Shown here one piece after another: positions 17,960 to 63,864 of a DNA stretch of 64,000 bases (positions within the stretch are counted from its first letter, which is position 1; each line of letters opens with the position of its first letter). The position numbers and the translations under genes were made by a program. The notes beneath the pieces were generated by a model. It saw nothing but the letters and a program-made list of their open reading frames with translations, had not been told where the DNA came from and made no database searches. Source of the DNA: Octopus vulgaris (taxonomy: Eukaryota); assembly GCA_951406725.2 (NCBI GenBank), contig OX597824.1, positions 75,268,001-75,332,000 on the forward strand, read 5' to 3'.

Positions 17960-18125
17960 TACGACAGGCTTCTTTCAGTTTCCATCTACTAAATCCACTC
18001 ACAAGGCTTTGGTTGGCCCGGGGCTATAGCAGAAGACACTTGCCGAAGATGCCACGCAGTGGGACTGAACCCATAACCATGTGGTTGGTTAGCAAGCTAC
18101 TTACCACACAGCCACTCCTGCGCCT
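17680..18125 (-). mobile_element. Full-length GTAAAAGA-tailed SINE
   Basis: Reverse complement of 2541-2960. Similar copies at 21000-21395, 46650-47058, 48345-48712, 50417-50860 and 56020-56428 (-), and 34273-34655 and 41922-42262 (+). Confidence 0.85.
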
Positions 18126-18164
18126 ATGTATATGTATATACCAACATCGTAGCAGCAATAAATG

Positions 18165-19839
18165 AGGTCAAACATTACTCTGCTGTAGGCCCTGATAGAT
18201 TTCTCGCTAGTCTCCTGAAGGAATGTAGATATCAACTTGCAGTCCCTCTGACCAACCTCTGGAGAAACTTGTTAGACGCAGGTTATATACCGAAACAGTT
18301 TCTATCCCAGTCGGTCATCCCTGTTTTCAAACAGGGAAACAGATCCCTCGCAGTCAACTATCGCCCAATCTCACTCACCTTCCACATCATTAAAGTGTTT
18401 GAAAGAGTGTTAAGATCAAGGATAGCTGACTTCCTGGAGACCCACAAACTCCTAAATTCAAATCAGCATGGCTTTCGCTGTGGCAGGGACTGTCTAACAC
18501 AGCTCTTACACCACATTGAAGATGTACTCAAAGCCTTGGGAACAGGTTCGAACTCTGACGTCATATATCTTGACTTCAGTAAAGCGTTCGACAGGGTAGA
18601 CCAATAACATCCTACTCTCAAAATTGGCAAATGTTGGAATCCGTGGAAAAGTTCTACACTGGATACAGTATTTCCTGGCGAATAGAACACAACATGTTGT
18701 AGTTGATGGAGTCCACTCAAACCCAGCAAAAGTCACCAGCGGTGTTCCCCAGGGAACTGTTTTGGGTCCGCTACTCTTCATAATTTACGTAAACGACCTT
18801 TCCAGTGTCGTACATCACTGCAAAGTGAAAATATTCGCTGATGACACTAAGCTCCAGCAAATCGTCAATGAAGAAGCAGACCGAACTCAACTCCAGTCTG
18901 ATCTATATGCTGTCAGTCAATGGGCAGACAGAAACAAAATGCAACTGAATGAGGGAAAATTTGAGCTGATGCATTTTGGAAGAAATTCTTCACTAAAACA
19001 ACCATACTCTCTTCCTTCAGGGGAACCGCTCACAGCCTCTAACAATATCAGAGACCTGGGTGTAATTGTTGATGACGATCTCAGTTGGAGTGCACACATC
19101 AACAAGAAGGTCGATATAGCTCATAGGATGAGTTCCTGGATCTTAAGAACTTTCCGGTCCAGAGAACAAGGTGTCATCATACCACTTTTTTCCTCCTTTG
19201 TACAGCCACACCTTGAATACTGCTGCCCACTGTGGTCTCCTCACACAAGACAAAACATCTCCAGAATTGAGTCACCCCAGAGGGCTCTCACTAAACAAAT
19301 TGAAGGCATGGCTGCTCTCGATTATTGGGATCGCCTTAAAGCCTTGAAACTTTACTCCCTCCAGCGTCGCCGTGAGCGGTACATCATTTGTACGATGTGG
19401 AAAATATACCGCCAACTTTGCCCAAACGACCTAAACATTAGGTTCATCCAAGACTTGGACCACGGGCTATACATCCCCTGCCAAATTCAAGATCACGACA
19501 TACATGTACACTGCAACATAATTTCTTTTCCTCAACAGGCCCTGCCCTATTTAACATTGTCCCGAGGGAGATCAAAGAGGAAAAGGATCCCATCAACTTT
19601 AAACAGAGTCTGGATAGATTCCTTCAAAGAATACCAGATAAGCCACCCATAATTGGATACAACTCACCCAACAAGAACTCACTACTTGAACAAAACTGGA
19701 TACAACTCACCCAACAAGAACTCACTACTTGAACAAAACTTGACTTAAACAGGATTCGAATAATCCTATCAGGTGGTGCTATTAAGTTAGACATGGCCTG
19801 GACCAATCTCTGGTCAAAACATATCTAAGTTTATCTAAG

Positions 19840-23760: not shown

Positions 23761-24112
23761 GATAGAATAGAATATTAATATTGGGTATAAAACACACGCA
23801 TAGTTGTTTGCCATTGAATGTCAACAGTTGGTTTGTTTACATATCAACATGTCAATATTATTTTCCCAAAAAACATACAAATAAACAAAGCACTGTAAAA
23901 GTACAGGAAGTAAGGAAGGGAAAAAGAAGGTCAACGAAAAAAAAACTGGCATAGAATGAAAATAAATACGAGAGAGGGCGGGGTGGAGGTAATTCGATTT
24001 TTCTTCTTTTTTTTTATATGTTTGTCAACACCCGCACCCACCTCGAAAACGAAAGTGGCATTTTTTTTTTCTGTAATTTTTTTTTTTTTTTTTCGGCTAT
24101 ATATATACTCAC

Positions 24113-25507
24113 TTGGAGGTCAGATGTCATGGTTTGTTGTTGGTCCATCTCGATCTGCAACGGCGGGGGACTCCCATCACTACACACGGAATTGGGTGAA
24201 GCCGAGGGTAGACCGGCAGCGGCGTGCACGGACGACACGCCGCTGCCGTAGCCGGCGGCGTGCGGAAGGCCCGCATAGGTTTCGTAATCCCTGTCTCGTG
24301 TCGTCGAGACGGTGCTAAGGTGCGCCGGGGGTGCTTGCGAATGGGCATGTTGTTGCAACTGTTGCAATTGTTGCTGCTGCTGCTGTTGTTGTTGTTGTTG
24401 TCTGAGTTGGGGAGTAAGCAGTGCAGCAGCGCGTGCAGACACCGTCTGGTGATGCTGTTGAACGTGTCTGGAGGAGAGATGAGAATTTAAAGAGTTCAGC
24501 ACCGACGGGGGAGAACCGCTGTTGTTGTTGTTGTTGTTGTTGCCGTTCGTGGAGTTGTTGTTGTTTGTATTGTTTGTGGTGTTGTTGTTTGTGTTGTTGT
24601 TGTTGCTGCTTGTGCTGTTGTTGTTGACGCTGTGATTGTTGTTGTTGCCGTTGCTGTTGTGATTGGCGCCGCTTCCCGCCACATGTGCTGCTGCAGCCGC
24701 CGCCGCTGCCGCCGCCGCCACGGCACATGTGGTGAGCGACGACACGGAAGCTGACGACACAGCAACAGACGACGAGGGAGAATACTGTTGTTGTTGTTGT
24801 TGCTGTTGCTGTTGTTGTTGTTGTTGTTGTTGCAAATGGTGTTGTTGCTGATGGAGGGAGACAATGGACGATGAAGTAGTAGAAGAAGAGGAAGACGATG
24901 CTGTTGCTGTTACTGCTGCTGCATTCACCACGATTCCCCCGGCAGCGGCTGCGACAACACCCCCGCCACCGCCGCCGCTGCCGCTGCCGCTCACGCCGGT
25001 TCCAGACACACCACCGCCGCCACCGCCACCGCCGCCGCCGCCACCACCTCCACCACATCCCGTACGGTTGCTGGCACCACCAGGCTGGGATGCTGTTGTT
25101 TGTAGCTGCTGTGAAGGTTCCTCCTGGAGCAGGTGATGTTGTTGTTGTTGATGAGGATGATGATGATGATTGTAGTGCTGATGCTGTTGTTGTTGTTGAG
25201 CTTTCTGTTGTTGCTGATGATGATGTTGCTGATGGTGATGTTGGTGATGAGGAGGAGGAGGATGAGTAGCTGAAGAAGAAGACGGCGGCGATGCTGATGA
25301 CGACAGCGACGACAACGACGACGATGACGACGACCCGACTGCACCTGCAACTTGCTGGGGCCCGGGTAGAAATACCCTCAGCGGCTGGCCCGGTTGGCCC
25401 GGTTGGACGACCTGTAACTGCGAAAGGGCTTCCTTCACCCCAGCAGACACTGCCTTTTGTATGGCCTGTAATAACCACTCCACATCGTCTGTTGGAAGAG
25501 CGGCCAT
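24113..25507 (-). CDS. First coding exon (465 codons) of an unidentified low-complexity protein (poly-S/H/Q/G/A/N tracts), probably a nuclear regulator
   Basis: ATG at 25507 in AAAAAAATGG context (MAALPTDDVEWLLQAIQKAVSAGVKEALSQLQ...). Open frame to ...TMTSDLQ, then phase-0 donor GTGAGT at 24112-24107. GC/CpG-rich island in AT-rich surroundings, with mixed-codon homopolymers. Downstream exons not identified. Confidence 0.8.
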
Positions 25508-26220
25508 TTTTTTTCTCCACTCTGTTATAAGAGAGAGAGACGGTGAATGAGTGTGAGAGAGAGGAGAGAAGAAAGAGAATGTGTGAGAGGGAGACGGGAA
25601 GAGAGATAAAGAGAGAGAGACACGCACAGCAAAAAAAAAAAGAGGAGATAAATAAGTTAATGGAACCGGAGCGGATAGAGAAAGAGAAAGAGAGAGAAAG
25701 CGGGAGAGTGAGAGATAGCTATGAAAGATTGAGAGAGAGAGGCAGAAAAAAAAAAGGCAGGAAGTTACAGTGGAGGATGAGGGATTGCGAGCGAGAGAAA
25801 GAGAGAGAGAGGGAGAACGAAGAAGTAAAAATAGTGAGTGAGGGTGGCTAAAGTAAGAAGAAAAAGAATATAAGCGAAGAGAGAGAAGCGAGCGAACGTG
25901 CTATAAAAAGGGGGAGGAAGAAACGAAAGAGTGAGAAGAGATGGACAGAGAGCGTAAGAGTGAAAGACGGCGGCAGCGGCTACTACATTGCTTTGCCAAG
26001 GCGGGGGGAAGAACGTGAGAGAGAGAGAGAGAGAGAGAATTCGAAGTAGAAGAAGAAGGTGAAGACGTGATGGAAGAATGGATAAAAGGAGACACGCGCG
26101 CAGCAGCTTCCTTTGTATTTTTTTTTCTGTTTTTGTTTTGTTTTTGTTCTTTTTTTCTTTGCTCTCTTTCCGTCTCTCTATCCTTCGCATCATCTCTCTA
26201 TCCTATCTACTTCTACACAA
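25508..26220 (-). promoter_or_regulatory. Probable 5'UTR/proximal promoter of the minus-strand gene
   Basis: TE-free, CT-rich (minus strand), CpG-containing unique sequence directly upstream of the ATG. TSS not determinable. Confidence 0.4.
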
Positions 26221-31698: not shown

Positions 31699-33112
31699 AT
31701 TTCCAGTTATAGAATTTGAAAGTGCTAGGGTAAAATATGCACAGGATCGAGCGACATCATGCAACAGATATCCAACTAACACTTCCAAAATTTACAGAGC
31801 CGAATGTGAATATCCTATTCATACACATACATATTTGTTTTTATGTACAAACTCACACACACACTCACTCACTCAGATAGGCGTATGTGCTTGTCCATAA
31901 TAACAGTGTAAATCACAAAATGAGAACTGAATTCAGTTCTTTGGAAACAATATCTTTTCATTTATAAACAAGCAACGTAAGTTTTAGGTAGAAGTTTACT
32001 GATTCTAAATACTGGCGATGGAGGATGAAGCGCGTGTGTGTGTGTATCTGTGTCTGTGTGTGTGTGTGCGCGTGAGTCTCTGCTTTCGTCGTTTGCGGAT
32101 CAATACGTAAGCGTATCCAGTGTTGTTGGTGCAGCTAGGGACAATTAGTCTTATCGTAAGCACCGAAACTGCGACAGTTCTCTAGATTGGTCAGCTGATG
32201 ATTGAAAAGTACTGTGTTTCTTTTATCCCCTTTACTTTTTTGCTTTCCCATATTAGACATGCATAAATACATATGCGTGAGTATGTCTGTATGCATGTAT
32301 ATATGTATGCATGCATGTATGTATGTATGTATGTATGTATGTATGTATGTATGTATGTATGTATATATATATGTGTAGATAGATAGATAGATAGATATAG
32401 ATAGATAGATGTATATACATACATAGCTACAAAGACAGACAAAAGTAAAGAATAGAGTATCCGGTATCACATTTATTCCATGGTTTACACTTGTTTCAGC
32501 AACGTGTGGTTGACAAATCAAACACAATGTAAATATGAATACTAATATAGTTATTTCCATTATGTAACGTATATTACCAAATAACCTCCAAATCCATGTA
32601 ATCATAACCGAATGAAAAGGTATAATACAAAAGCCGTTGTTCTCTTCCGTGTATACATACATAATATTTTCTTTGTCGCCTACACACATCGTTGAAACAA
32701 TTGTAAAGCATGGAGTGAATGTAATACCGGTTATTTTTCTTTTTTCTCACTTATAATTTATACTCCGTGGCGGAAGTAAACGCTTTCTATTTGTTTAAAA
32801 ACCTGTGTTTCCACAGGAAAAAATTTTCCCTTCAAATATATTTCAAGTCTTCAGAAAAAAACAATTATGCTTGAGCATCTTGTAAAACGCGTTATAATTT
32901 TGCTTATACACAGGCATTATTAACAATACAATACGTGGAATAGATTTCCGTGTTTTATTTATTAATTTTCTTTGAAATACTTATGAAACATAGCGTGCTT
33001 TTTTAAAAAGCTTTCTGTTCGAAGCGCACCAATAACTTTGTACTTCAGTCACGAAAGTAGAAAGTTTTTGGAACGACATAATGTGTGTATATACACACAT
33101 AATGTGTCTATA

Positions 33113-43321: not shown

Positions 43322-43377
<56 letters not shown>

Positions 43378-43530
43378 GCCGAAATTGCGAGGATGATTCG
43401 GTTCTTAACTGAGGATAGAAAGCTTCGAATGACCCGTCCTTGTTTTTATGTATCGTCTATTTATGTTTTGTTGTCCTTTTTTGTATCACCTAGTTGTCCG
43501 GATGTTTTGCGTTCTTGTCCCTTTTTGTAT

Positions 43531-43588
<58 letters not shown>

Positions 43589-43637: not shown

Positions 43638-45272
43638 ACATGGTGACCCCCAAAATGGAACTTTTGAAAAATCCAACAAAAAAAAGTTGATTGACAAATA
43701 TTAAACAAATAAGTCGGCAACTTTTGAAGTTTGCCGTGCAGCCATGTAGTACTACCCATTTGGCAGCACTGTGGTACAGTGAGCTTCATGCAGAAACAAC
43801 CTTGCAATTTAGTAATCATAGATCATTGGAACGGTCAACACCGTGCTTTCGCTATAAAAAATGCTTTACAAAAACTATAATTGTTTGGAGGATGCGCAGC
43901 GTGAGTTTCAATGTCATCTCAATTTAGGACGCCGTTGTCAAATTTCCTCGAAGCACGCGGTGAAAATGTGGATTAAAACCTTTGAAGAGACTGGATCGGT
44001 TCTGAAAAAGAAACCGACAGGACGACCAAGAACTCTTTGTACTCAAAAAAATATCGAGGCTCTACACGTTTTCGTCTTACAGAGTCCACGTTGTTCAGTT
44101 CGTAAGCAGGCAACTGCAGTAAGGTTGTCCTGCGTGAGTATTTGCCGAATTCTCCATTTTGAAATAAAATTTCATCCGTACGAGCTGCAGATCGTGCAAG
44201 AACTGAAGGATACTGATCACCAATTTAAATTAAAATTCTGTCCAAAAATTATGGAAAACATAAACGAAAACTACAAAAATCTAGAGAAGCTGTAGATGTC
44301 AGATGAAGCTCATTTTCATCTCACAGGTTATGTGAACAAACAGAACTATCGTTACTGGGCAGATAGCAGCCCTCAAGAATTTTATGAACGCCCTTTACAC
44401 AGCAGCAAGGTGACGGTATGGTGTGCATAAGGCAGCGAGCTGGCAGAATCGTTAGCACACCGGGCGAAATGCTTAGCCGTATTTCGTCTGCCGCTACGTT
44501 CTGAGTTCAAATTCCGCCGCGGTCGACTTTGCCTTTCATCCTTTCGGGGTCGATTAAATAAGTACCAGTTACGCACTGGGGTCGATATAATCGACTTAAT
44601 CCGTTTGTCTGTCCTTGTTTGTCCCTTCTGTGTTTAGCCCCTTGTGGGTAGTAAAGAATCAGGTATTTCGTCTGCCGCTACGTTCCGAGTTCAAATTCCA
44701 CCGAGGTCGACTTTGCCTTTCATCCTTTCGAGGATCGATTAAATAAGTACCAGTTACGCACTGGGGTCGATTTAATCGACTTAATCCGTTTGTCTGTCCT
44801 TGTTTGTCCTCTCTGTGTTTAGCCCCTTGTGGGTAGTAAAGAAATAGGTATGGCGTGCAGCTTCGTCACACGGAGTCATCAGACCTTATTTTTTCGAAAA
44901 TGGAGATCACAGTGACTGTCACTTTTGATCGATATGTTGAGATGCTGCAATCTTTTGTTTCAACTGCATTGAATTATTTTCCGCAACTTCACGATGATGC
45001 GACATCGCACACTACAAAGTAATCAATGGCAGTTGTGCAAGAGTTGTTCGGTAACAGTGTCATCTCAAGATTCGGTAACATTCACTGGTCCCCCAAGATC
45101 ACCGGATTTGTACGTTTGTGACTTTTTCTTGTGCAGTTACCTTAAAAGTCGGATCTACACGGCTTGGTCAAAGACACTGGGTGAACTGAAAGAGAGAATT
45201 CAAGATGAAATTCGTGGTATACCAACTGAGATGGCAGATTGACAGAATGCATATGTAGAAGAGGACGCCATC
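43638..45272 (+). pseudogene. IS630/Tc1/mariner-superfamily transposon (DUF4817-type HTH + DDD), inactivated
   Basis: AQREF..FEETGSV..TGRPRT..FHPYELQIVQEL, *MSDEAHFHLTGYVNKQNYRYW..SKVTVWCA, PRSPDL..CDFFL. Carries stops, frameshifts and a SINE insertion. Confidence 0.88.
44428..44846 (+). mobile_element. Dimeric SINE inserted into the transposase
   Basis: TSD GGTATGG(T/C)GTGCA at 44415-44427 and 44847-44859. ~184-bp internal tandem duplication. Confidence 0.9.
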
Positions 45273-48869: not shown

Positions 48870-49767
48870 CACAGTCTGATCAATAAGTGACCGGACTGTT
48901 GCCATAATAATTAAGCTAAAGCACGGAGAATGAAGCCGCTTGGTACAAATTGACCTTGGACTCTGTTGTGCATGCGCACTAAATTTTAACTTTGTAGCTC
49001 ACTTCCGCTGTTTACAGCAGTGCTTGGAAGGAACATGTGTAGTGTGTGATCGTCGCATTAATCAAAATAGAGAGAAAGTTAAGCAGAGAATCTGCATCAA
49101 ATTTTGCCAAAAACTTGGTGATACCTGCGCAGAGACCTACAAAGTTTTCAAAAAATTTTCATTGTTTTCCACACAATCAAGGAGATCTTGTGCAACTGAA
49201 ACCCGAGTGTCTTTTTGGTCAGCTGAAAGTAGTTTTGACACAAACTTGGCAGACACGCGTCTCGTACCCAAATCCTCAATGATAATGGACTGAACTGAAC
49301 CGTAACTAATCTGTACATCCTCTGATAACTCTCGGATGGTTATTCGATGATTTCTCTCACAGCTGCGTGCACATCTGCGTTATTTTGCACAGTTCTGCTG
49401 GTTGCGGGTCTCCCAGAACGTTCGTCAATACCAATATTTTTCGACCATCTTGGAAATGTCTGAACCACTCGTACACTTGTGTGCGGTTCATACAATCCCC
49501 TCCATACACTTTCTGCAACTTTGCGAAGGCCTCTGAGCAGGTGTCGCCATGACAACTTCCAACGTCATGGTCAATGCGACAATCACGCGTTACACACCTT
49601 CCTTTCAAGCATTGCTGTAAACAGCGGAAGTGGGCTACAAAGTTAAAACTTTGTGCGCATGCATAACAGAATTGAAGGCCTATCTTTACCAAGCGGGTTT
49701 ACTCTGCTTGCTTTAGCTTCGTTACTATGGCAGCAGCCCGGATACTTATTGATAAGACCTCCTGTGT
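48870..49767. mobile_element. Mariner-derived palindromic element: two left ends facing each other
   Basis: ~190-bp inverted arms (48870-49060 / 49570-49765). Transposase N-terminal relics on both strands (QRICIKFCQKLGDTCAETY +; GDTCSEAFAKLQKVYG..VYEWFRHF -). Confidence 0.85.
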
Positions 49768-54080: not shown

Positions 54081-54736
54081 ATGTGTCAGTTAGAGTGAGA
54101 GAAAGGGCTACGTAGTACTCGTGTAGCAGTACTCGTCTGCTGAGTTGGCTTGAGCAACGTGAAATGAGATTCCTTCACCATCTCGTCCAAGGTTCCACGC
54201 AATGGGACTGAACCCAGAACCATGTGGTTGGTAAGCAAGCTACTTATCAAGGACTTCATTGTCCAATATGACCTTGCTCGAGTCTGGTCTCATTTGACGG
54301 AACTTTGGCTGCTATTTCTAGGATCATAAGCTCAGCAACCTCTCTATTAAACCACATACCTTCACAATAGTAATACCTAACAACAATGACTAGTGCAGGT
54401 ATTTCAAATACCACACAACATAAATTCATGATTTATTACAATCGTTTCCAACTTTGGAGGGTGTGTCATAATTATTAAAAGGCGATTAAAACCAGCTCCA
54501 TACGAAAAGGGGATATAATCTCAAGAATCAAAGTTGACAAACCATTAAAGAAAAGAACATGCTTAAAAGGATGTCCAAAATGGCGGTGAACAGATAACTT
54601 ACATGTAACGCCAGATCTCTCTGACATACCAATGAGGTATATCTTAACACAACAGGAAGTTTATCAGAGTTATCTGTTATTGTAATATTGAATAATAAAC
54701 TTGCACAAAGTTTGTCAGGATATTCTTTTCCGCATT

Positions 54737-54803
54737 CCTTTCTGTAGAAGTGCGTCAGCTCGAAACATCAAAGACTCTTCTATTTTTTCCTGAGCGTCAT
54801 AAA
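54737..54803 (+). ncRNA. Decayed type I hammerhead (same family as 33385/63793)
   Basis: CTGTAGAAGTGC..GCTCGAAAC..CCTGAGCGTC. Confidence 0.5.
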
Positions 54804-54979
54804 TAATACACTTTATTTTTTTCCCATCTGCCTGTGTTTTCTGCTTTGTTTTTTCTTTTTTTTTTGTTTTTCTTTTTTTGGTACAATTTTGAACAATATA
54901 GCTGTTGTAGTAAATTAACCTACCTCAGGTCCTCGGTGAATTGAGAATATTAAAAAAATTATATATATATATATATATA

Positions 54980-55035
54980 TATCCTTACCTTCGGAACGCG
55001 GAGTAGATAAAACAGGGGATAACTGATGAAGGAAA
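54980..55035 (+). ncRNA. Non-circularly permuted hammerhead, 5'-truncated at predicted cleavage site
   Basis: (TA)n-TATCCT..CCTTC GGAACGCG..GGGATAA CTGATGA AGG. Homologous to 63276-63338. Confidence 0.55.
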
Positions 55036-55174
55036 CGTTCTTTATGCTGCATGTCTCGTTTCTGTTTGTTTTTTTCGTTGTTCGAAAAAAAAGATCGTTT
55101 TCTTTTTGTTTTTTATGTTCTCAATTCTCATTCTGTCTACGTTCTTTTTATGTCCTGTAGCCATATATGCATGT

Positions 55175-55221
<47 letters not shown>

Positions 55222-55291
55222 TATGTACATCTATGTATGTATATATGCATATATTTATATTATTATATGATCGAATGCCACGCATCCTTTT

Positions 55292-61121: not shown

Positions 61122-61177
61122 TACCGGTTAGGCCCGAAATTGCGATTGATCCTCTGACAGATAACTGACGAGGGGTT
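61122..61177 (+). ncRNA. Non-circularly permuted hammerhead, 5'-truncated
   Basis: TACCGGTT AGGCCC GAAATTGCG..GACAGATAA CTGACGA GGG. Stem II CCC/GGG. Confidence 0.5.
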
Positions 61178-61483
61178 GGCGACCATCTGTGTCTGTTTCA
61201 CGTTTGTCTGTGCATTTATTATGTTTTCAACTCATTATTTAACGCAACGTATTGTAAAAAAACCCATCTTATTTATAAGTACTAAATACACACACACACA
61301 CATACACACACGCACACACATACATTAATGTTTGTTTTTATGTTCAGTAACAATAAAAACAATTTTTACATTAGTTTGATAGGTTATTCTATACTTTTAT
61401 CGAGTACAACTTCATTATTCTTATACATAATGTTGTTGACAGTTTCGGAAGTCACTGTCAACAACATACTTGAATAATAATAA

Positions 61484-61856: not shown

Positions 61857-63275
61857 GACTAATAAAAAAAAAAGACGACCCTAGAGAAGAAAAAGGGAAG
61901 TTGAATATGATTATAATCATACAATTCTGCTCTTTGGGATATCAAGTAGATGGCTAAATTTAAAATAGTATTTGGTGGGTTAATCCTTCGTACGGGAGGG
62001 GGCGTCGGATGGATAATAATAAAAAAATAAAAAATAATAGCGGGATACGCCAATAGGTTTTAGTCGAAGAAGGAGTGAAGATACAATAAGGTGTTAAATT
62101 AAACATAATAATTTTTAATAATTATGTTTATAGTACTAATTAATAGTATTTATCATAATAAAGAGCTAATCGATTAAATGTATTTTTTTTATTACTAGTA
62201 GGTGATTAAGCCCATCAGCCTGTTGTCCAAAGTGAGATAGGTCAAGGTCCAGTGTTCGATATAATTGGTCAGTTAAAATTTAAAACAAAAGACCAGCTTT
62301 TGAGATCTTTAAACGGGGTAAGATAAGTAAACGAATGAATGGGAAAATGATATATGTTGTAGGGAGCCCGAAAACGCTTAGGGCAGTATAAAACTCGATT
62401 AAAAAATAAATATTATGGAATAAACGAGGCTAATAATAACATTAGAGTCAAGAGAGATACCTATTTGGACGTTTAGGAAATAAGACGGTTGTGGGGTTAG
62501 GTGATCCAAAAGTTTTTAAAATAGGACTGTGAAATTGTCTTTACCTATAATTTATGAGCATAACATGCTTGCATATGTATGCCTAGTATAATGGATAGTT
62601 TTATCCCTTAGACGGTTATTTTAACCTATTACTCAGCTAACCTTATATATATATATATAAATGTGCATGAATGTATGTGTGTATGTATATATTTAACCAT
62701 ACATGTATACATATATTACATTGCTATTTAGTATACGATTTAATTATTGGAGGTTTACTATTAACACCGATACAAATGTACATAGATTTATGTGTTTCTT
62801 GTTGCAGTTTAATTTTAAAGGTAGTGCTTAATCCTGCTTATATATAGATTGCATACTGTTCTACATGAGGTAAATGTGCTTGAAATTTTTTCTTTTTTGT
62901 TTTTGTTTTGGTATGTTTGTTCCCAAACAACACTTCTTTTATTGCTGTTTCAGGTGTCGAAACCATAATGATATCCGTGGGACAGCTGATGATTGGGTTT
63001 GTTGGATTGTTGGTATGGCTGTTTTTGTATATATGGGATAGTGTTATAACACAACCTTTTGATATATATATATATATATATATATGTTAATAAAATATAT
63101 GCATATATATAAACATATATGTACATACCTACCTCTACATGTACATATACACGCATATATGTGTACAGGACACCAAAAAGACGTCGAACACATAGAGAGA
63201 CGAAAAACATAGACACAAACCAAGGAACAAGACAGGCAAAAAAAAGGAGATACAGGACAATAAGCACAACGAAAA

Positions 63276-63338
63276 ATCCCCTTCTTCAGTCGCTAAAGTT
63301 TCATCTACTAAACGTTTCGAAGGATAAAAGCGAGACGT
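63276..63338 (-). ncRNA. Non-circularly permuted (pseudoknotted) hammerhead ribozyme candidate, complete
   Basis: ACGTC|TCGCT ttt ATCCTTC GAA ACGT (17 nt) AGCGA CTGAAGA AGGGGAT. Stem III ACGT/ACGT, stem I TCGCT/AGCGA, stem II GGGGAT/ATCCTT. Confidence 0.7.
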
Positions 63339-63662
63339 ATACTTCGAAGAAAAATTCCTTCCTGAGAAAAGCAAATCAATTAAAATTCTGAGATCTTTTC
63401 GCAGAGGGGTAAAAAAAGCAAGACGGTAACGACAGTACAAACATATAAACAGTAAAAAATATATATATAAACAGTGGAAAAATAAATATATAACAGTGAG
63501 AGACAGGACAAGGAGAACAAGATAAGAAGGGCTGTTAACGCCAGACGAAAAAAGTATAGCAAACGCTGGATTATAGTGGACATATATATATATATATCTT
63601 TACATACTCACACTCACACACACACATATATATATAGTATGTGTGTGTATATATATATATAT

Positions 63663-63792: not shown

Positions 63793-63864
63793 TATTTCTG
63801 ATGAAGAGCTCTGCTCGAAACATGAAATCCTCTTTCTTTTCTTTCATTTCCTGAGCGTCCAATA
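63793..63864 (+). ncRNA. Type I hammerhead in short Penelope-like element
   Basis: TATTT CTGATGA A[GAGC/GCTC] GAAAC..GCGTC|CAATA. Confidence 0.65.

Follow-up and report, generated by a model that had tools for sequence, protein, structure and literature searches.

The fragment at positions 54980-55270 (+) of a 64,000-nt stretch of Octopus vulgaris DNA (contig OX597824.1; this whole stretch is referred to as the window) starts beside a run of TA repeats at the point where a hammerhead ribozyme is predicted to cut, which raises the questions of whether self-cleaved RNA was the template of this copy and what kind of hammerhead would have made the cut. The window overall is animal DNA, AT-rich and dense in microsatellites. 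The (TA)n run, the limits of which were measured, occupies 54960-54982 (+) and is the probable insertion target; its last three bases, TAT, are also the start of the 3' strand of stem I (54980-54986), the first bases past the predicted cut, and may represent microhomology. Position 1.1 lies at 54980 or 54979, according to which of two stem I pairing registers is taken, the register also being set by sibling contigs. There follow, all on the forward strand, a short linker with the 3' strand of stem II (54987-54992), ending in C11.1 at 54992; the GAAA box (54993-54996); the 5' strands of stem III and of the tertiary helix between stems I and II (54997-55014, placed by homology to the copy at 63289); the 5' strand of stem I and the CUGAUGA box (55015-55029, with the intact box at 55023-55029); and a T-rich 3' tail (55030-55270, the 3' end being approximate), which is common to the 63289 copy and includes an internal (TA)n at 55184-55219.

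Stem I is the one helix for which the fragment holds both strands, 54980-54986 pairing with 55015-55021 through five Watson-Crick and two G-U pairs; the strands of stem II, stem III and the tertiary helix have lost their partners. The NUH strand is missing, as the sequence-only reading had it, and the loss is larger than that reading stated, as the entire 5' half of the ribozyme is gone. A NUH site and stems I, II and III in register are thus absent, and regarding the boxes, CUGAUGA is kept and GAAA has indeed become GGAA (A13G). The copy is a dead remnant, as had been supposed, but the supposed cause is only secondary: it is dead mainly because just the 3' half of the ribozyme remains. It is of interest for pointing to a known ribozyme that is wired in a new way, within an element clade already known.

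The proposed kinship with a copy at 63276 (63289 in the numbering used here) holds, the shared words being present and the alignment of 54983-55181 with the 63289 copy on the reverse strand scoring 112, against 49.5 +/- 7.2 in shuffles (0/500 reaching 112). Positions 54980-55183 are a sister of that copy without everything 5' of the predicted cut; like the stem I pairing, this family link is observed directly. The sister is intact, about 500 bp long between TA runs (63086-63581, -), and an ORF is absent from it as well as from the fragment. No third copy of this subfamily was found in the window with a two-copy profile (next match E 0.12), and no likeness was detectable between the fragment and the copies at 43409, 61165 and 32195 (194/500, 33/500 and 397/500 shuffles score as well). 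The compensatory change claimed for stem I was borne out as far as pairing is concerned, but not as independent evidence, because three of the five Watson-Crick pairs use the TAT that is in phase with the (TA) repeat.

Regarding coding capacity elsewhere in the window, a broken reading frame at 31900-32050 (+), upstream of the 32195 copy, has a motif that we take to resemble the end of a Penelope-like ORF; a Pfam search of 12 frames near the other copies, this region included, gave nothing relevant. Two overlapping ORFs of 176 and 350 aa at 18077-19652 (+) presumably resemble a LINE reverse transcriptase, and fragments at 43858-44295 (+) and 48934-49698 presumably a Tc1/mariner transposase. 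A 628-aa open frame at 24014-25900 (-) with poly-Q, poly-N and poly-G, the only stretch of the window above 50% G+C, is possibly a real host exon.

The family to which the fragment was assigned, one of permuted hammerheads, is real. The motif CGAAA occurs 20-35 nt ahead of CTGANGA six times in the window, where local shuffles have a mean of 0.38 and 0/150 reach six; the fragment, with CGGAA, is a seventh copy with GAAA before CUGANGA. The circular block order of types I-III is not that of these copies, in which GAAA precedes CUGANGA and the cut is upstream of both. A type II reading, with the cut between GAAA and CUGANGA, was rejected by inspection, as stem I fails to form. None of the Rfam hammerhead families was detected at E up to 10 in the three regions tested, nor was a hammerhead present among the 150 of 284 matches listed from an Rfam scan of the whole window.

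Three copies are intact enough for their wiring to be read, and both the CUGANGA and GAAA boxes are present in each (63289, 32195 and 2215). The 63289 copy (-) has stem II at 63361-63356/63324-63319, the tertiary helix at 63352-63346/63305-63299, stem III at 63338-63335/63315-63312, a predicted GUC cut between 63334 and 63333, stem I at 63333-63329/63294-63290 and CUGAAGA at 63289-63283. The 2215 copy (2136-2225, +) has a candidate entry/exit helix, an inserted hairpin, stem II of 6 bp, a tertiary helix of 6 bp, stem III of 5 bp, GUC and stem I of 5/6; it is GC-rich, nearly intact and the best assay candidate in the window. In the 32195 copy (32116-32206, +), stem II has 5 bp, the tertiary helix 7 bp and stem III 4 bp, GUC is present, and stem I is decayed (3/5). 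Counted as Watson-Crick pairs, stems I, II and III amount to 5, 6 and 4 in 63289 and to 5 of 6, 6 and 5 in 2215, with a NUH site and A15.1-U16.1. In all three intact copies the order is S, G, C, with S-to-G linkers of 3-4 nt.

These copies stand apart in that the partner of stem II is found upstream of the cut, with 6 Watson-Crick pairs in 63289, 5 in 32195 and 6 in 2215; the strand that pairs next to stem I follows this upstream strand (6/7, 7 and 6 bp in the same order). The wiring would accordingly be read, from 5' to 3', as stem II 5' strand, tertiary strand, stem III strand with NUH and stem I strand, a short linker, stem II strand with GAAA and stem III strand, tertiary strand, and stem I strand with CUGANGA. 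The chain would enter and leave between A9 and G10.1, giving a pseudoknotted hammerhead with a split core. The predicted wiring of the intact copies, in which the 5' strand of stem II precedes the cut and CUGANGA stands at the end, falls outside the six described hammerhead permutations. The split-core order would result from circularly permuting the SGC/CSG circle of Eckert et al. and opening it within a block that these authors regarded as indivisible; SGC, CSG and split-core may all be one circle opened at different points, and tandem terminal repeats could convert one form into another.

A plain type SGC ribozyme with a downstream tertiary helix was the first reading, and it was dropped because A-rich strands pair easily with a T-rich tail and because the upstream partners are stronger. 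According to this improbable alternative, the family would be type SGC in a new host and the upstream strands accidental or a partial duplication. It draws on the 63289 copy, which matches a strict SGC descriptor (1/150 shuffles), has a 4-bp downstream stem II (two G-U pairs) and a 7-bp downstream tertiary candidate, and has upstream and downstream strands that are alike. However, stem II downstream of CUGANGA has 0 bp in the 2215, 32195, 43409 and 62986 copies, and apart from 63289 it amounts to 3 bp in the fragment (55023) and 5 bp in 61165, three of them Watson-Crick, whereas the upstream partners form 5-6 Watson-Crick pairs and recur in nine published consensus sequences (see below). Duplex energies for upstream versus downstream stem II are -7.3 versus -5.5, -8.4 versus +0.3 and -13.9 versus -1.4 kcal/mol, the upstream duplex being the stronger in 3/3 copies.

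The split-core reading is further supported by shuffling and control loci. A split-core descriptor, composed after the copies had been inspected and skipping matches with less than 80 nt upstream, gives three matches in the window, against a shuffle mean of 0.01 and a maximum of 1 in 300 shuffles. Applied to control loci, which were pattern-scan matches in viral contigs (10) and metagenome contigs (at least 120), it passes 1/130, and that one without stem I; none of the 10 viral and at least 120 metagenome matches listed has a stem I of 5 and a stem III of 4. With the cores fixed, upstream stem II and the cut block were equalled by 1, 18 and 0 of 2000 shuffles in the three copies. The helix sequences vary between the three intact copies with pairing kept.

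Folding in the nested sense carries no such signal (z -0.88 to 1.17 for 7/7 segments, in a model without pseudoknots), and the entry/exit helix at A9/G10.1 is not significant in the window copies (84, 835 and 85 of 1000 shuffles). In sibling contigs the base at 63365 differs in nearly all of the depth; judged by eye, the variant disrupts the short register of the entry/exit helix and makes up a full 4-bp hairpin immediately ahead of G10.1. A hairpin ahead of G10.1 is also present in the 2215 copy and in consensus sequences of Naiads, a clade of Penelope-like elements.

We take the element behind the fragment to be Penelope-like, probably of the Naiad clade. Naiads favour (TA)n targets and were reported to be without canonical hammerheads (PMC8557442), and in the same paper Craig, Yushenova, Rodriguez and Arkhipova (2021) flag 'HHR_core' on 10 and 'HHR_half_core' on 8 Naiad consensi. 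TA runs adjoin the fragment and the 63289, 43409 and 61165 copies, and the copy at 62986 (62910-63065, +) resembles, by eye, the 3' ends of the Naiad_Obim and Naiad_Ovul consensi (File S5 of PMC8557442). That copy has an internal deletion of about 27 nt, with the joint after 62949, extending from G10.1 to near the end of stem I, so that the 5' strands and the cut site are lost. Six words from the fragment's and the other families matched no Naiad consensus in the available parts of File S5, so that, in the absence also of a recognised ORF, the fragment's family is Naiad-like by layout and (TA)n target only.

In the accessible passages of the same file, split-core order was found by eye in 9/54 Naiad consensi (CTGANGA matches and several 3' ends, a survey that matches at line ends may escape): 3_Chem, three from Acropora, 2_Movir, Plae, EuTe (by file position), Obim and Ovul, from cnidarian, acanthocephalan, crustacean and octopus hosts. 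The three Acropora consensi hardly differ from one another, nor do the two from octopus, so the nine represent six independent sequences. Stems I, II and III, as well as the tertiary helix, differ in sequence among them, A or C occupies position 17, the cut precedes C11.1 by 12-16 nt, and an entry/exit helix of 3-8 bp was seen by eye in five. Six further passages (parts 13-16), from the region of the file that holds the nematode consensi, have type CSG with all four helices, and in one (part 16) the order is SGC and stem II is replaced by a hairpin; a split-core or CSG fold is thus present in about 15/54 consensi, as far as these passages go. Two consensi in the CSG passages stop directly after the stem III strand of the ribozyme. 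The 5' regions of Naiad_Obim, Naiad_Ovul, Naiad_Omin and several arthropod consensi, in the same partial view of the file, contain another motif, in which CUGANGA sits in a long hairpin's loop. In two bivalve Naiad 3' ends from the file, a hammerhead core was not found by eye.

These comparisons suggest that Naiads, reported without the usual hammerhead, carry rearranged ones with predicted self-cutting; rearranged wiring would explain the report of 'no canonical hammerheads'. The fold might instead be a hammerhead-derived structure for protein binding or priming that has lost cutting, the junction then being a structural boundary, which we hold to be slightly less probable still than plain SGC. 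Eckert et al. were aware of no natural hammerhead in which more than 1-2 nt separate CUGANGA from its stems (PMC10085705), and the hammerhead of the Poseidon element PAc cuts only with protein and is dispensable in vitro, according to PMC11167929. Against loss of cutting, CUGANGA, GAAA, A15.1-U16.1 and a non-G at position 17 are kept amid differing stems in 9/9 of the consensi and in 3/3 intact window copies.

Turning to the junction, the boundary between the fragment and (TA)n may fall anywhere from 54979|54980 to 54982|54983. The statement that the repeat comes within 1 nt of the cut is therefore right if TAT belongs to the element (0-1 nt) and wrong if it belongs to the target (3-4 nt). The repeat could also be an internal expansion, or stand for an internal deletion in a longer copy, the case that had been named as fatal to a junction at the cut. 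The 62986 copy did lose its cut block through an internal deletion, and 50 nt of the flank (54910-54959) are assigned to no element. The flank, however, is unrelated to the part of the 63289 sister that precedes the cut (125/500 and 306/500 shuffles score as well), and it aligns to another Penelope-like family, with 0/500 shuffles scoring as well against each of three window relatives. Since the flank is unrelated to the sister and matches another family, the (TA)n at 54960-54982 is not an internal expansion, and we consider this alternative very improbable; the unrelated flank, like the missing 5' half, is a direct observation.

At 54720-54880 (+) the flank consists of the decayed end of another Penelope-like element, with remains of a hammerhead in canonical order, and lies outside the fragment's element. 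Canonical-order remnants (CUGANGA then GAAA) were seen at 63798 (+), 33449 (-), about 6030 (-), 54742 (+), 55755 (-) and 31692 (-); the first four belong to one Penelope-like family, and several end in (TA)n.

Was cleaved RNA the template? In the window copies the cut lies 13-14 nt before C11.1 (13 in two sibling loose ends), and the 3' cleavage product of a split-core ribozyme is exactly what the fragment contains. Among 416 ends of TA runs examined, three are followed by a GAAA block and an exact CUGANGA; in these copies the first non-repeat base is 6, 9 and 11 nt before C11.1. They are the fragment and the copies at 43409 (43374-43535, +; beginning after (TA)n, 6 nt before C11.1) and 61165 (61124-61200, +, the 3' limit being provisional; beginning after a TA run, 11 nt before C11.1), the latter two being related to each other in sequence alignment. 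Three of the seven copies with GAAA before CUGANGA thus begin just 3' of the cut, within 13 nt after it, and 0/7 begin inside the 5' half of about 45 nt, in a search to which copies truncated 3' of GAAA are invisible. On a rough post hoc binomial, the chance of such clustering is 0.004, with a range of 0.05-0.0006 by assumption, for n = 7 with two of the truncated copies related.

Contigs of four sequencing runs were aligned to 63160-63575 (1419, 512, 1334 and 160), three of the runs covering the ribozyme and that of organism E giving no cover there, and the 63289 family is multi-copy in two organisms (A and B) by aligned contigs. Relative to the peak within the ribozyme, summed contig depth upstream of the cut, which is not copy number, climbs back to 0.70, 0.65 and 0.68 in 3/3 covering runs. 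Among the 24 of 272 loose ends listed, none is a (TA)n end at the cut, in a set from which junction contigs that are short, and TA sequence that looks human, may be missing. The contigs largely run on past the cut in the upstream direction, so copies truncated at the cut make up no more than a minority of the 63289 subfamily.

The principal alternative, which we regard as unlikely though deserving serious weight, accepts the rewired hammerhead and makes the fragment an ordinary 5' truncation, by drop-off or TAT microhomology, that starts near the cut by chance. It is consistent with the sibling contigs, with a start near the cut in just three of seven copies and offsets of up to 7 nt, with the invisibility of copies truncated 3' of GAAA, with TA-like stem I strands, which would favour joining (TA)n there, and with the dominance of uncut RNA in PAc (PMC11167929). 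It is opposed by the lack of starts in the 5' half, all three falling within 13 nt after the cut. Stalling of reverse transcriptase would be expected at the 3' edge of the fold and not past all of the copied 3' strands.

The template claim of the sequence-only reading hence stands in part, with copies that begin just 3' of the cut in its favour and sibling contigs that continue upstream against it. The junctions hint at cleavage in vivo, though thinly, and cleaved RNA is a plausible template for the 54980 copy. Taken as a whole, we lean towards a dead, 5'-truncated terminal-repeat fragment, probably of a Naiad, in (TA)n, the relatives of which would have a split-core hammerhead that may have cut the template.

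For such a copy to arise, the RNA of the element would cut itself, and reverse transcription would begin internally, downstream of the cut, as in the Poseidon element (PMC11167929), running off the 5' end created by the cut; the product would then join the (TA)n target via 0-3 nt of microhomology, leaving a short insert from cut to tail. Longer copies would derive from uncut RNA, which in the Poseidon element PAc was the dominant template in vitro, the same paper reporting no RNA-seq reads that end at the cut. In R2 elements, a cut at the 5' end leads to variable junctions of the microhomology type (PMC3774820).

On a broader scale, many Naiads in at least four animal phyla may carry active pseudoknotted hammerheads, mostly of a seventh wiring opened at A9/G10.1 and in nematodes of the very rare type CSG, with the 3' product of cutting in vivo giving rise to short (TA)n-flanked inserts, a generalisation on which we judge the balance to be even. 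If true, it would resolve the stated puzzle of Naiads thriving without canonical hammerheads, shift non-circularly permuted ribozymes from anonymous metatranscriptomes to animal retroelements of high copy number, and overturn the premise that stem II must adjoin CUGANGA, from which the figure of six possible wirings follows. In the literature consulted, what hammerheads do in Penelope-like elements is termed unclear; an accumulation of junctions at the cut would speak directly for cleaved RNA as template, and the short (TA)n-flanked inserts, if so derived, would document in the genome that hammerheads cleave during Penelope-like transposition. In the literature covered, outside which subscription journals mostly lie, we found neither a paper that connects Naiads with permuted hammerheads nor one that describes a split block C.

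Among known systems, the R2 HDV-like ribozyme (Eickbush, Burke and Eickbush, 2013; PMC3774820) is of another ribozyme class and element type, and its 5' junctions were shown by experiment, whereas those in the window are deduced from three junctions. Non-LTR retrozymes consist of tandem units, each with a type I hammerhead, unlike the window copies, which are dispersed monomers; a 2026 retrozyme preprint confined its hammerhead search to type I. The minimal type I hammerheads that canonical Penelope-like elements carry in their pseudo-LTRs (Cervera and de la Pena, 2014; PMC4209133) share the terminal-repeat position, a wide variety of sequence within a genome and the tolerance of an extra base between 9 and 10.1, and this conserved extra base makes a plausible opening point for the split-core order. 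They differ in the canonical order of CUGANGA then GAAA and a palindromic stem III, whereas the split-core hammerhead would be pseudoknotted and complete as a monomer.

The Naiad clade (PMC8557442), the ORF of which has an N-terminal GIY-YIG endonuclease and a C-terminal reverse transcriptase, is alike in its (TA)n targets, T-rich 3' end, the Naiad_Obim/Ovul end in the window and the layout of nine consensi; it is unlike in that the paper reports no canonical hammerhead and in that the fragment's family has no consensus match by the words tried. Types SGC and CSG of the non-circularly permuted hammerheads (Eckert, Friedrich, Weinberg and Weinberg, 2023; PMC10085705), the latter known from two published sequences, have the cut block, a linker of 1-8 nt, the GAAA block and CUGANGA in the same cyclic order, all core bases, and a fourth helix linking stems I and II, which is present with an upstream strand in the three intact window copies. 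The unbroken block C of type SGC, with the 5' strand of stem II 1-2 nt after CUGANGA, is absent from the window copies, which split block C, with the 5' strand of stem II first and CUGANGA last, and the split-core order often has a hairpin and a candidate entry/exit helix at A9/G10.1.
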